Of a stretch of 25,972 nt of DNA, positions 6,396-11,424 are shown piece by piece (position 1 is the stretch's first letter; each line of letters opens with the position of its first letter). The notes beneath the pieces are model-generated. The model saw nothing but the letters and a program-made list of their open reading frames with translations, was not told the DNA's origin and did no database searches. The stretch is from NCBI GenBank assembly GCA_027592155.1, contig JAQCKY010000001.1, positions 1-25,972 of the forward strand. Reading direction: 5' to 3'. The position numbers were made by a program, and so were the translations under genes. The DNA comes from Pseudomonadota bacterium (GTDB lineage: Bacteria > Pseudomonadota > Alphaproteobacteria > Rhodospirillales > UBA2165).

Positions 6396-6779
6396 CTAAT
6401 CCTCGGTCGGGCCGCCGGCTTCTTTCCAGGCGGCGTAACCGCCGGCCATGCTGGCGGCGTTGGTGAGGCCCATTTTGTTGAGGGTCAGCGTCGCCAAGGC
6501 CGAGCGCCCGCCGGTACCGCAATAAACGACAAAGAATTTGTCGCTGGCAAAGACCTCGTTGTGGAAGGGACCATCGGGGTCGGCGATGAACTCCAAGAGC
6601 CCTCGGGGCGCGCCCACGCTGCCCTTGATCTGGCCCTGGCTCTCGCCCTCCGATGCTTCTCTGACGTCGACGAACACCGTGCCCTCGTCGCCGACGAGGT
6701 CGAGCGCTTCTTGTACCGAAATCGTATCGATGGTGGCGTTCGCCTCCGCCATCATGTCCTTAAATCCGTAATGCGCCAT
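6396..6779 (-). CDS. Single-domain rhodanese (sulfur/selenium transferase fold)
   Basis: FVDVRE, active-site loop YCGTGGRS, MAGGYAAW signature. Confidence 0.92.
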   Translation of the reverse strand: MAHYGFKDMMAEANATIDTISVQEALDLVGDEGTVFVDVREASEGESQGQIKGSVGAPRGLLEFIADPDGPFHNEVFASDKFFVVYCGTGGRSALATLTLNKMGLTNAASMAGGYAAWKEAGGPTED

Positions 6780-6808
6780 GGTTGTTCCCTCTGCTGGTTG
6801 ATGGTTCG

Positions 6809-7645
6809 TTAGGCATTGCCCCAGGCGAGTTGCTCGGCTGAGTGAAGCGCATAGTGGTCGCCTTTATGGAAGGGCGCGAAGGCCTTGGCGATGACCTCAT
6901 GCAAGGCTTCAAGCTCCGTTTCAGACAAGCCTTCGAGCCGCGCACCGTGCGATCGCTGCAGCATGACATCCCAGAACCGGCCCTCCACCGGGCGTTCCCG
7001 CACCTCGCGGATCGGCGTATCGCCGACATCGGAAAAGCCTGCCTTGCGGAAAAACCCCGCCATCTCGCCATCGCCGCCATAACGGTGACGGCGCGAATTA
7101 GGCTTGATCACCTCTTCGCCGAAATAGTCGGCCACTGCTTGGGCGAGAACCGGGTTGAGGCTATTGTCCGCCGCCGGGCCATGGACCATAAAGGCGGCCC
7201 GCTTGCCGGGTTTGAGAACACGCCGCACGTCGGTCAGCACCGCCACCGGATCGTCGGCGAACATCAGGCCGAACCGGCAGGTTACGGCGTCGAATTGATT
7301 GTCATCAAAGGGCAGTGATGTCATGTCGCCGATCTCGAAACGCATATGCGCCAAGCCGAGATTGTCGGCCCGGTCCTGCGCCCCTTGCAGCATTTCCGAA
7401 TTGGCATCAATGCAGGTGACGGAGCCCGTAGGCCCTACTTTGACGGCAATACTGATGGCGGGCTCGCCCGCGCCCGAGGCGATATCCAGGCACCGCATGC
7501 CTTCGTCGATCTGGGCCGCTTCGATCAGCCGCTGGTTGGGCAGATCATAGTCGGACAGGCCCTTCGCCGCCGTCCGTGCCCAATGCGCCCCGCGCGCCGC
7601 CCAGGCGGGGTCTGATGCGCGAGATCCGGTGGTTTGCTCAGCCAT
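6809..7645 (-). CDS. Class I SAM-dependent methyltransferase (UbiE/COQ5-like fold)
   Basis: CLDIASGAGEP motif I, GDMTSLPFDDNQFDAVTCRFGLMF, RRVLKPG. Confidence 0.9.
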   Translation of the reverse strand: MAEQTTGSRASDPAWAARGAHWARTAAKGLSDYDLPNQRLIEAAQIDEGMRCLDIASGAGEPAISIAVKVGPTGSVTCIDANSEMLQGAQDRADNLGLAHMRFEIGDMTSLPFDDNQFDAVTCRFGLMFADDPVAVLTDVRRVLKPGKRAAFMVHGPAADNSLNPVLAQAVADYFGEEVIKPNSRRHRYGGDGEMAGFFRKAGFSDVGDTPIREVRERPVEGRFWDVMLQRSHGARLEGLSETELEALHEVIAKAFAPFHKGDHYALHSAEQLAWGNA

Positions 7646-7766
7646 TCAATTTGGCCTCTCATTTGTTTTGGAAGCTGGGAATATTCACTTACCCAGTCTA
7701 AGGTAAACCGTGGCGGAGTGGGCGCAAGTCTTCGCCCAAAAATTAACCCCAATGAGGAAAACAATA

Positions 7767-8516
7767 ATGACCCGCTCTCCAGTTACGCTCACAATTCTGA
7801 CGCTCTCCTTGCTCTTCTCAGGCAGCGCCCTGGCGCAAGGGGGATTCCTAGACAAACTCAAACAGAACATCCCCCAAATGCCGGGGTCGTCCGGCAGCGC
7901 CGCCACCAGCGCATTGAGTTTGGATGAAATCACCGCCGGATTGAAAGAAGCACTCGCCGTTGGCGCCGGGCGTGTTGTCGAGACCGTCGGCAAATCGGAC
8001 GGTTATAACAGCGATCCCGCGATCCATATTCCGCTGCCGGAATCTCTGCAAAATGTGCAGTCGACCCTGAAAAAGTTTGGGATGTCGGGCATGGCAGATG
8101 ATCTCGAACTCAAGCTCAACCGCGCCGCCGAGGCTGCTGCGCCGGGCACAAAGCAAGCCCTTTTGGATGCCATCAAGGGGATGAGCCTGGATGACGCCAA
8201 GGCGATCTATAACGGTCCTAAGGATGCCGCGACCCAATATTTTCAGCGTACCACGTCGGAAAACCTCAAAGGCGTGATCAAGCCGGTGGTCGATCAATCA
8301 TTAAGCCAGGTCGGTGCGATCGCCAGCTATGACAATCTGATCGGCAAATATTCGAATCTTCCCTTTGTGCCGAATGTGAGCGCTAATCTCTCCGAGCATA
8401 CGGTCGGCTTGGCGCTTAAGGGGCTGTTCCATTATCTTGCCGTGGAAGAAGCGGCGATCCGGGACAATCCGGCGAAACGCACGACGGAACTCCTGTCGAA
8501 AGTTTTAGGGCGTTAA
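7767..8516 (+). CDS. DUF4197 family exported protein
   Basis: Signal peptide ending SALA/QG; AGLKEAL, IHIPLP, LNRAAEAAAP, AATQYFQRTT, ALKGLFHYLAVEEAAIRDNP motifs; GAGGA at 7754-7758 is 8 nt before ATG 7767. Confidence 0.85.
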   Translation: MTRSPVTLTILTLSLLFSGSALAQGGFLDKLKQNIPQMPGSSGSAATSALSLDEITAGLKEALAVGAGRVVETVGKSDGYNSDPAIHIPLPESLQNVQSTLKKFGMSGMADDLELKLNRAAEAAAPGTKQALLDAIKGMSLDDAKAIYNGPKDAATQYFQRTTSENLKGVIKPVVDQSLSQVGAIASYDNLIGKYSNLPFVPNVSANLSEHTVGLALKGLFHYLAVEEAAIRDNPAKRTTELLSKVLGR

Positions 8517-8618
8517 CACAAGTTCTACCTGACGCAGTCGTGATGGGGAGGTACGGTTGCGCCGCCCGCCCGGCTGTGGTGAGTTAGGGCAAATGTGAAC
8601 TTAATGGAGTAGCAGAGC

Positions 8619-9664
8619 ATGGATACGCAAGTCGTACGCCTGACGTCTCTTTCTCACGGCGGCGGTTGAGGCTGCAAGATAGCACCGTCGGTGCTTGAAG
8701 AGTTGCTTTCCCAACTGCCCACACAATACACCGACCCGAATATGTTGGTGGGAACCGCGACCGCCGATGATGCGGCGGTCTATCGCCTGAACGACGATCA
8801 GGCGATCATCGCCACGACGACTTTTTCATGCCCATCGTCGACGATCCGTTCGACTACGGCCGGATGGCGGCGGCAAACGCGCTGTCCGACGTCTATGCCA
8901 TGGGCGGCAAACCGCTGTTCGCGTTGGTGGTTGCCGGTGTTCCGGTCGGCAAACTGCCGGTCGAAACCGTGCAACGCATCTTTGCCGGTGGGTATGAGGT
9001 TTGTGCGCAAGCCGGCGTACCCGTTGCCGGAGGACACACCATCGACATCACCGAGCCGATCTATGGTTTGGTCGCCATCGGCGTCGTTCATCCCGATAAA
9101 ATCCGCCGCAACGGCGATGCCCAGGACGGAGACGTTCTGGTCCTTGGCAAGCCTCTCGGGATTGGCATCCTGGGCGCGGCGGAGAACAAGGGTGAACTCG
9201 ACCCTGAAGGCTATCGACAGATGGTCGACACAGCTTCCCGGTTGAACGCGGTGGGTATCGATCTGACCGAGCTCGATGGCGTTCACGCGATCACCGATGT
9301 CACCGGGTTCGGTATTCTGGGGCATATGCTGGAAATCTGCCGAGGCTCAGATCTCGCCGGGTCCATCAACTTCGACGATCTGCCGATCCTGCCGGCGGCA
9401 CGCGACTATGCCGCCAAGGGCTACAACACCGGCGCGGCGGGCCGCAACTGGGCCAGCTATGTGGACAGCGTCGATGTGCCGGACCGTTTGTCGGAATACG
9501 ACATCAACATTCTCCGCGACCCGCAAACCAGCGGCGGCTTGCTGGTGGCCTGTGCGCCGTCGGCCGTCGACAGCGTGCTCAAGACCTTCCACGATCAGGG
9601 CCATGCCGAGGCGGCCGTGATCGGGTCTCTCGCTGCAGGCGATCCCCGGATCAACGTGGTTTAA
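8619..9664 (+). CDS. selD: Selenide, water dikinase (selenophosphate synthetase) with in-frame TGA at codon 17 (probable selenocysteine) and a 1-nt frameshift near 8819
   Basis: From ATG 8619 (GGAG at 8606-8609): [32 protein letters not shown]...DDAAVYRL...ATT; continues one base back as [14 protein letters not shown]...[12 protein letters not shown]...GGHT...TDVTGFG...DPQTSGGLL. Restoring one base gives 348 aa. Confidence 0.93.
8667..8695 (+). promoter_or_regulatory. UGA plus candidate bacterial SECIS hairpin
   Basis: TGA at 8667-8669; stem AGCACC (8681-8686) / GGTGCT (8690-8695) with loop GTC starting with G, 17 nt after the TGA. Confidence 0.6.
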
Positions 9665-9683
9665 GACGAAGTTCGCGGTTACG

Positions 9684-9790
9684 CATCCTCCCGCCTGCGC
9701 GAAGCCCGCTTCGGCGGGCGAAGGCAGGTCGACAAGCTCAGGATGAGGAGGCCTATTTTCACCCTCATGCTGAGCCTGTCGAAGCATGAG
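9684..9790. repeat. REP-like palindrome doublet, copy 2 (left arm interrupted)
   Basis: Right arm 9760-9790 is the reverse complement of 6297-6327 at 30/31 nt; left arm is CATCCT (9684-9689) + insert + TCGACAAGCTCAGGATGAG (9729-9747); sits between convergent selD and cytochrome c genes. Confidence 0.85.
9690..9728. repeat. 39-bp palindromic element nested inside the REP-like arm
   Basis: CCCGCCTGCGCGAAGCCCGCTTCGGCGGGCGAAGGCAGG with inner GCCCGC-TTCG-GCGGGC hairpin and outer CCTGC/GCAGG pairing; removing it restores CATCCTTCGACAAGCTCAGGATG. Confidence 0.7.
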
Positions 9791-9823
9791 GTGCCGTTCG
9801 TATCTCTAATGCCGCCCGTAACT

Positions 9824-10315
9824 CTAATAATGTGAATGGATGCCGCCGACAAAGCTGGCGAGGGCTTGGCGTTTGCGAATGTCGTCCGGCCAACGGCTTT
9901 TGATATAGGCCAATATTGCCCAGATCTCGTCTTTGCTTAGCTTTTTCTCATAGCCGGGCATGCCGCTTTTAAACCCGCGTGGCGCGTTGGCTTGTCCTCC
10001 CCAGCGCACATAATCGAACAACTCCCGGTCGGAATGTTCCCAGATATGGCCGTTACGGTCCTGCGGCGGTGCAGGATAGGTGCCGTCCGCTTTTTTGGTT
10101 TCCCAATTAGGCTCACCCTCCAGGTTCTCGCCATGGCATTTAGCGCAGTGCCGCAGATGCAAGGTCTGGCCCCGGGCTACCAGCTCGGTATCATTGGGAT
10201 CGGTGCGGGCCGTGATCTTTCCACTGACCAGCAAGAATATGCCCGCCAGTCCCGCGATGACGATATAAGCGGCAAATCCCAGCGCCAGGTTGCGGTATAG
10301 TTTATCTTGGGCCAC
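9824..10315 (-). CDS. Membrane-anchored monoheme c-type cytochrome
   Basis: N-terminal hydrophobic segment, CAKCH heme motif, GENLEGEPNW, distal SGMPGY, EIWAILAYIKSRWP; GTG start. Confidence 0.88.
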   Translation of the reverse strand: MAQDKLYRNLALGFAAYIVIAGLAGIFLLVSGKITARTDPNDTELVARGQTLHLRHCAKCHGENLEGEPNWETKKADGTYPAPPQDRNGHIWEHSDRELFDYVRWGGQANAPRGFKSGMPGYEKKLSKDEIWAILAYIKSRWPDDIRKRQALASFVGGIHSHY

Positions 10316-10458: not shown

Positions 10459-11424
10459 ATGACGCTGAATATGACCCGGTTCCACCTTATTTCGGCGATC
10501 TCGCTGATCCTGGCAATTTCCGTAATGCCGGCGAACGCTCAGCAACGTTATGAACCTTGGCAGAACCCGGACGGCTCCCAACGATCGGCGGGACAGCTTG
10601 AAGAGTTTATCAACCAGCTCAACGGCCTGATCGATACTGCGGAACGGGACCGCGCGGCGAACCCACGGTTCTTGCGCGATCTTCGAGATTTAACAAACGA
10701 GTACCAGCCGCAAGGATTTCATCGGGCTTGGCCGGACGTGTTGCTGGATGACGATTTCAGCGACGGTGACTACCAGTATAATCCAGTCTGGCAGGTCAGC
10801 GGCGGGCGGTTTTGGATCGAAAAAAGCTACGGTCTTAGAAGCAGCCTCGCTCAATCCGATCAGAACCGGCAATCCGACGATACGAGGTCCCGCGATAACA
10901 AAGATGCCGCCGCCCAGATACTCGGCAGCATTCTCAATCAAGCGCTCGGCGGCGGTCGCGGGCAATCCCAACAAGATCAAACGAGTGCGTCTTCTCCGGT
11001 CGGTCTTGCGGCGATCAGCACGGATACGCCGATCAGCAATTCTTTTTCCATACGCCTTGAGATGACATCCTGGAAAAACCAGGGGGAGTTCTTCATGGGT
11101 CCCTATCAGGGCGCGCAACGGGACGCCGGTTACCGGCTGGTCTACCGGGTGGGCTAAGTTCCTTCGGTGCAAATCTTGCGGGTCTCGTCGCGGGGCACGG
11201 CGGTCATCGGCTCCTACCATCAATCCTTAAAGCTTGAGGATCAAAAGCCCCATGTCATCAAGTGGACCCGGGACCAAGCCGGCGTCATGACGGTCGAGAT
11301 CGATGACCGAGAGATAATTCAGGTCACCGATCAAGGGTTCCGCGACCGCTTCAATGGCTTTAAAATGGCCAACGGGGGTGGCGATTATATCGTCCGGCGC
11401 GTCACGATTCAGGGGTCACGGTAA
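10459..11424 (+). pseudogene. Exported hypothetical protein interrupted by one in-frame TAA (11155-11157)
   Basis: ORFs 10459-11157 and 11167-11424 are in the same frame and read as one protein (GYRLVYRVG*VPSVQILRV...); signal peptide ending ANA/QQ; AAGGAG site before 10459, none before 11167. Confidence 0.7.

Follow-up and report, generated by a model that had tools for sequence, protein, structure and literature searches.

A selenocysteine-type selD with a conserved SECIS hairpin, probably split by an assembly error, in an uncultured marine Rhodospirillales lineage

We found that the stretch of DNA analysed here (the window; 25,972 nt) carries a gene that, judged from its sequence, is selD (selenide, water dikinase, or selenophosphate synthetase) in its selenocysteine (Sec) form, belonging to an uncultured marine alphaproteobacterium of the Rhodospirillales type. 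The catalytic position of the encoded protein falls on an in-frame TGA, which is followed by a putative bacterial SECIS hairpin, and the reading frame is broken further downstream by the lack of one base. We are very confident that a Sec-type selD with a functional SECIS exists in this lineage. The whole account, in which such a gene, SECIS included, has been split by an error of assembly, is probable. A Sec-containing SelD is, as such, ordinary and already known. The window is contig C294 of a 3.19-Mb MAG (620 contigs, 80% completeness, 3.8% contamination), referred to below as the own genome.

Read directly in the window, the start codon of selD is ATG at 8619-8621 on the forward strand, and GGAG at 8606-8609, 9 nt before it, is a likely ribosome-binding site, to which this function is given from its position only. 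The listing of open reading frames under the standard code places the earliest selD start at GTG 8691. The earlier note had proposed that the true N-terminus lies 72 nt upstream of this called frame; indeed, ATG 8619 and GTG 8691 are 72 nt apart and in frame, and the frame between them is continuous. The start and the N-terminus are the same in the aligned family relatives, and likewise in L050, a metagenome contig coding for a 95%-identical protein (P0003), where GGAG also stands shortly before the same ATG. The N-terminal part of the gene extends for 67 codons in frame 1, from the true ATG to the frameshift site (8619-8819, forward strand), as seen from its translation and its match to TIGR00476, and the C-terminal part, translated from DFFMPIVDD onward in a second frame, comprises 281 codons and the stop (8819-9664, forward strand). 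The TIGR00476 model of selD covers 8637-8828 with one internal TGA, and matches 8819-9565 with 316.5 bits.

For profile scoring, both parts were joined with an X at the break, giving a protein of 348 residues. This protein exceeded the cut-offs of the equivalog models for SelD over its full length, scoring 493.5 bits with NF002098 (cut-off 299; residues 2-340 on positions 2-336 of the 347 of the profile) and 399.7 bits with TIGR00476 (cut-off 125). A phmmer comparison with the E. coli SelD structure (PDB 3u0o) aligned residues 4-339 with E = 9e-96. From residue 4 onward the two sequences run colinearly, with U17, C19 and K20 of the window protein on Cys17, Cys19 and Lys20, which bears out the correspondence with E. 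coli Cys17 and Lys20 drawn in the earlier note. The glycine-rich N-terminal loop with Cys or Sec at 17 and Lys at 20 (E. coli numbering) is present, H13-G-A-G-C17-G-C19-K20 of E. coli matching H13-G-G-G-U17-G-C19-K20 of the window residue for residue. Apart from the Sec codon, a single frame is what a selD gene should have, and here the window departs from it by one G missing at 8819/8820.

The TGA at 8667-8669 (forward strand) is, by translation, codon 17, as had been noted, and its assignment as the Sec codon at the catalytic position comes from the alignment to 3u0o and from conservation. Forty related genomes were searched with the C-terminal part of the protein, and the N-termini of the matching genes were then read. 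TGA occupies codon 17 in 20 of the 23 other selD genes so compared, and TGC in the other three (G006, G028 and G037); the earlier note had named this conservation as a check on its reading. The 20 genes with TGA come from 19 species genomes of the same family, which span about 11 genera at roughly 60% protein identity, and from the contig L050. All 19 species genomes have HGGG-TGA-GCK, with a frame otherwise open through DFFMPIVDD, and L050 has the same ATG, the same TGA, the same hairpin and the same neighbour genes as the window. The in-frame UGA is thus aligned with the Cys of homologues and kept as UGA in orthologues. In addition, a contig from an independent public run, X3, is without differences to the window over 8563-8713, TGA included, which answers the check on reads and close relatives that had also been proposed. 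Because the TGA is common to the 19 species genomes and L050, and is also seen in run X3, we regard it as ancestral to the lineage and not as a private nonsense mutation.

Directly downstream of the TGA lies the candidate SECIS (8681-8695, forward strand), identified by its fold and its conservation. The hairpin, AGCACC-GUC-GGUGCU, has a stem of 6 Watson-Crick pairs (8681-8686 with 8690-8695) and an apical loop GUC (8687-8689); 17 nt separate the first base of the loop, a G, from the A of the UGA. The 6-bp hairpin with a G-initiated loop 17 nt past the TGA was therefore read and folded just as the earlier note had described it. The published consensus for bacterial SECIS elements (PMC13188914, Fig. 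2 legend) allows an apical loop of 3-9 nt and an upper stem of 4-16 bp, and asks for a G in the first two loop positions, usually then G or U, a distance of 16-37 nt from the UGA and a free energy of at most -7.5 kcal/mol (PMC13188914). With its GUC loop, 6 bp, 17 nt and -7.7 kcal/mol, the hairpin falls within all four limits of this model, an outcome in favour of Sec for the SECIS check that the note had proposed. On its own, the 19-nt stretch of the hairpin has a folding energy of -7.7 kcal/mol, which 0 of 200 shuffled sequences reached (z = -3.57). However, no exceptional stability was found for the fold in a context of 40-50 nt (z = -0.26 and -0.72 against shuffles). Since this larger context is no better than shuffled sequence, the argument for the hairpin rests on conservation and not on energy.

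The conservation is pronounced. Of 18 aligned Sec-type genes, 17 have the same hairpin sequence down to the wobble bases of its Ala, Pro, Ser and Val codons, whereas flanking wobble positions in the same genes vary freely. We computed codon entropy for 21 Sec-type genes over 108 conserved columns of four-fold-degenerate codons. The mean was 1.43 bits, and the hairpin codons 22-25 had 0-0.28 bits; only 5 of the 108 columns were at or below 0.3 bits, and four of these are the consecutive hairpin codons. A search for the 29-nt motif made up of TGA and hairpin, in which the observed synonymous variation between the two was allowed, found the motif exactly in 45 species-representative genomes, all of them MAGs labelled Rhodospirillales, Rhodospirillaceae or Alphaproteobacteria; the record names of several point to marine samples. 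The main hairpin, being invariant in 17 of 18 genes, offers no covariation to score, and support for the structure from sequence change comes solely from the divergent Sec-type gene of G005, which has a hairpin of different sequence at nearly the same place, with a 7-bp stem and a GUU loop. No conserved lower stem below the hairpin was evident in the alignment of the Sec-type genes.

We also looked at the corresponding position in the Cys-type genes. The gene of G028 (L043) has a 5-bp hairpin remnant there, with one G-U pair and a UGC loop, which looks like a fossil SECIS left after a conversion of Sec to Cys, as described in PMC1794560. The gene of G037 (L037) has a different 5-bp stem at this position, and in that of G006 (L042) no hairpin was found when 40 nt from the TGC were folded. 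Separately, the 5′ end of the window selD is far more conserved at the DNA level than the rest, with 5 codon differences to L050 among the first 60 codons compared and 82 among the 281 downstream. Constraint on the RNA outside the hairpin is one possible cause, recombination another.

The Sec machinery that the earlier note had expected elsewhere in the genome, and had proposed looking for, is there. Contig C51 carries selA (1367-2782; 544 bits) and, adjoining it downstream, selB (2-1354; TIGR00475, 394 bits against a cut-off of 242), which is cut by the contig end. The SECIS-binding winged-helix domain of SelB (PF09107) was not found in the own genome; because selB runs off the end of C51, this miss is no evidence of absence. 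Two genes for tRNA-Sec with anticodon UCA, both above the Rfam cut-off and both on the reverse strand, lie at C33:2485-2579 and C89:6106-6200. These two genes (loci L002 and L003) differ from each other. The copy on C89 is 83-95% identical to the copies of family relatives (at least 91% in 7 of 9 full-length matches), and the copy on C33 only about 74-82%, again over full-length matches; C33 may be a contaminant contig or carry a divergent second selC. The selA on C51 is 61-66% identical to the copies of family relatives, comparable to selD at roughly 60%. Thus selA, selB and tRNA-Sec are found in the same genome as the window, the linkage being that of MAG binning and of similarity to family relatives. 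A search of the 20 relatives whose selD is Sec-type detected selA in 16; the four without a match are 66-89% complete, and one of the four has tRNA-Sec. No tRNA genes were found inside the window itself.

SelD would not be the sole user of this machinery, because the own genome also holds genes for a SelW-like (Rdx) protein with C-M-M-U (C445:1942-2142, reverse strand; L104) and for an AhpD-like protein with C-K-Y-U (C68:3988-4158, forward strand; L113), each with an in-frame TGA at the redox motif. Two further candidates, matches to the CMD domain with an internal TGA, were observed at C68:2506-2715 (reverse strand) and C38:2255-2368 (forward strand); the translation of the former does not show a CMD domain. 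Searches of the 80%-complete own genome found no selU (tRNA 2-selenouridine synthase, TIGR03167) and no alpha subunit of a Sec-type formate dehydrogenase (TIGR01553); for the latter, all that turned up were weak hits on other molybdopterin enzymes, none with an internal TGA.

Together with what is known of the family, these features suggest how the gene would be read. A ribosome would start at ATG 8619; at the UGA of codon 17, SelB carrying Sec-tRNA(Sec) would bind the putative SECIS at 8681-8695, inside the coding sequence, and deliver selenocysteine, so that translation would proceed without termination. The Sec would thereby be placed in the glycine-rich N-terminal loop, H-G-G-G-U-G-C-K, at the site of E. 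coli Cys17. Insertion of Sec at UGA 8667-8669 and synthesis of selenophosphate by the window SelD are both predictions from family knowledge. The selenophosphate made by SelD would be needed by SelA to form Sec-tRNA(Sec), and since SelA needs selenophosphate, the synthesis of SelD would depend on its own product, a known self-referential loop. The earlier note had offered this self-dependence as a point of interest; it is long established (PMC1794560, PMC13188914).

The frameshift that the earlier note had mentioned nearby is real in the sequence as given. Frame 1 ends with IIATT at 8819, and the conserved continuation, DFFMPIVDD, stands in the next frame, which is open to the stop at 9662-9664. 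At the site of the shift (8819-8820, forward strand) a single G is missing, the window having ACGAC where its relatives have ACGGAC; ACG-GAC, coding for T-D, is present in all 23 of the other selD genes compared. A 151-nt contig from run X3 spans 8699-8848 and departs from the window in two places, with one substitution and one additional G after 8818, and so has an intact frame. The G is also present in L050. Two further runs, X1 and X2, hold most of the window and are probably the source samples; their evidence was taken from Logan contigs. Contigs of X1 and X2 that match the window exactly end at 8785 and resume at 8843, and none of those listed spans 8786-8842; the word depth is about 4.6. 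Such depth as these runs show at 8818 would come from contigs of other origin, whose alignment is limited to the conserved DFFMPIVDD stretch. Because the source-run contigs stop there, and the depth is about 4.6, the MAG consensus at the break rests on very few reads.

The rest of the gene bears no other damage. The dN/dS ratio of the window selD against L050 is 0.06, and the 281 codons after the break differ synonymously in 67 cases and non-synonymously in 15, with no further lesions. About this locus, another disruption was found 1.5 kb further on, where TAA at 11155-11157 stands in place of CAA (Gln) in L050. It splits the homologue of a 319-residue protein into two open reading frames on the forward strand, 10459-11157 and 11167-11424. 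The 319-residue protein of L050, for which no NCBIfam match was found, has a hydrophobic N-terminus and is 83% identical to its window homologue over the full length. The TAA may be a second lesion or an error of assembly, and its nearness to selD fits a consensus that is locally error prone.

Three other explanations of the locus have to be weighed against a Sec-type gene split in assembly. One concerns the TGA, which might be a nonsense mutation of a Cys codon in a decaying gene, with the hairpin beside it a coincidence. The earlier note had kept such a change as a fallback, linking it to the frameshift. TGC becomes TGA by a single change, and the frameshift does lie only 150 nt downstream in the same gene. 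Yet the TGA is ancestral to the family and the frameshift private to the assembly. Moreover, TGA stands in 20 of 23 other selD genes that are all otherwise intact, the hairpin is under constraint at synonymous sites, the TGA-plus-hairpin motif recurs exactly in 45 species genomes, and the Sec machinery is present. We therefore rejected a nonsense mutation on the conservation data, and give it practically no chance of being right.

The other two accept the Sec codon and concern the missing base. The deletion might be true and very recent, a genuine Sec-type selD having been inactivated in this strain, with the use of selenium lost or being lost; the cell would then make no more of SelD than its 67 N-terminal residues, followed by a tail read in the wrong frame. 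The deletion does stand in the assembled sequence, a second disruptive change (TAA 11155-11157, CAA in L050) makes two lesions within 2.4 kb, which could be gene decay, and in the course of their evolution bacteria have commonly lost selenoproteins and the Sec trait (PMC1794560). What speaks against real loss is that decay is not visible in selD itself, given a dN/dS of 0.06 and the lack of stops or indels over the 281 downstream codons; that the near-identical contig of the independent run X3 has the G; that the contigs of the source runs have their gap exactly at the site, at a depth of about 4.6; and that selA, selB, tRNA-Sec and other TGA-containing selenoprotein genes, useless without SelD, are still in the MAG with their frames open. 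We consider such a loss unlikely, though it is the most credible of the competing explanations. Alternatively, the frame might be restored during expression, by a -1 ribosomal slip or by transcriptional slippage on the run of five T at 8822-8826, yielding full-length SelD. The run does follow directly after the break, and tRNA-Phe could, formally, slip by -1 on UUU. However, the canonical X XXY YYZ heptamer is absent, and the product would read T-T-T-F-F, losing the Asp of the TTDFF motif that is present in all 23 other selD genes. All 23 relatives, moreover, encode SelD in one frame with the same T run, and the shift occurs in one low-coverage assembly only, hence there is no conserved recoding signal. 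Restoration of the frame by slippage is accordingly very improbable. That the deletion is real at all, with a strain that has just lost SelD while keeping selA, selB, tRNA-Sec and TGA-containing genes, or that relies on low-level frameshifting, is to us doubtful. If it were true, the window would show either a whole selenium-utilisation trait at the very start of its collapse or, with low-level frameshifting, a cell in which the one enzyme underlying all selenoproteins depends on a shift of frame. We favour, as the probable explanation, an error of low-coverage metagenome assembly that removed one base from a gene intact in the organism. On the main point, the reading of the locus as a Sec-containing SelD made in the earlier note stands, with the UGA and the hairpin conserved and the Sec machinery in the same genome.

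The surroundings of selD are conserved as well. Over 6396-10315 the gene order is rhodanese and SAM methyltransferase (both reverse strand), DUF4197 and selD (forward strand), and cytochrome c (reverse strand), and the same order is kept at 715-4508 of L050, the 95%-related contig. Just downstream of selD, the segment 9669-9800 reaches word depths of 65-508 in runs X1 and X2, where selD itself has about 4.6, and shows many joints and loose ends with variable inserts. This segment is a multi-copy REP-like repeat, common to many places or organisms in the sample.

The analysis has consequences for annotation. Dozens of database entries for SelD of this family (P0003-P0058 and others), including the 95%-identical one, are exactly 324 residues long, because gene callers start after the UGA. 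These entries are without 24 N-terminal residues, among them the catalytic Sec17, Cys19 and Lys20, and represent a systematic annotation truncation. In the window the called selD is even shorter, 278 residues, through the frameshift. For Sulfurimicrobium lacus, NCBI holds both a truncated SelD entry of 324 residues and a full-length one of 346, which suggests that current annotation pipelines can recover full-length SelD.

For the window, the correction is a true start at 8619, a Sec codon at 8667-8669 and one base missing at 8819/8820. Recognition of this selD indicates that selenocysteine is in use in an uncultured marine Rhodospirillales lineage, whose predicted selenoproteins are SelD and proteins of the SelW-like and AhpD-like kinds, and that a marine Rhodospirillales family has one nearly invariant short SECIS in common. 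The probable consensus errors in this MAG are a warning for its users. The value of the window selD lies mainly in annotation, and selenium biology is unchanged by it.

The classic case of a Sec-containing SelD is that of Haemophilus influenzae, and Sec-containing forms of the enzyme are widespread. A survey of bacterial genomes ranked FdhA and SelD ahead of all other selenoproteins in how widely they occur; every organism with selenoproteins had at least one of the two, and 38 Sec-SelD genes were counted among 285 bacterial selenoprotein sequences (PMC1794560). That SelD might maintain the Sec trait "for itself" was already discussed there (PMC1794560). A 2026 review places SelD second among prokaryotic selenoprotein families in breadth of occurrence, describes the Sec of its N-terminal loop as the catalytic residue, and remarks that in marine communities the Sec trait may be kept up by SelD (PMC13188914). 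The use of Sec in the lineage of the window agrees with published metagenomic surveys, which count SelD with the most abundant selenoproteins of marine origin (PMC9312934, PMC13188914).

Compared with E. coli SelD (PDB 3u0o), the window protein has the same H-G-x-G-[C/U]-G-C-K loop, the same Lys20 and a similar length (347-348 residues). The difference is at position 17, where E. coli has Cys (TGC) and needs no recoding, whereas the window has UGA and a putative SECIS. This element resembles those of the E. coli fdhF/fdnG type, as captured by the bSECISearch consensus, in that a stem-loop lies directly 3′ of the UGA inside the open reading frame, with a loop that starts with G and then U; the candidate in the window, however, stands at the small end of the model, with a 3-nt loop, a 6-bp stem and -7.7 kcal/mol against the limit of -7.5 kcal/mol. 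With other bacterial Sec-SelD proteins, to which it is orthologous, the window SelD shares a Sec where E. coli has Cys17, in the glycine-rich loop near the N-terminus, a UGA followed by an in-frame SECIS hairpin, and dependence on selA, selB and selC. There is no difference in kind; the window copy comes from an uncultured marine member of the Rhodospirillales and has a private one-base deletion. What distinguishes its lineage is a SECIS that is short (6-bp stem, 3-nt loop) and unusually invariant, the 29-nt motif being exact across 45 species genomes.
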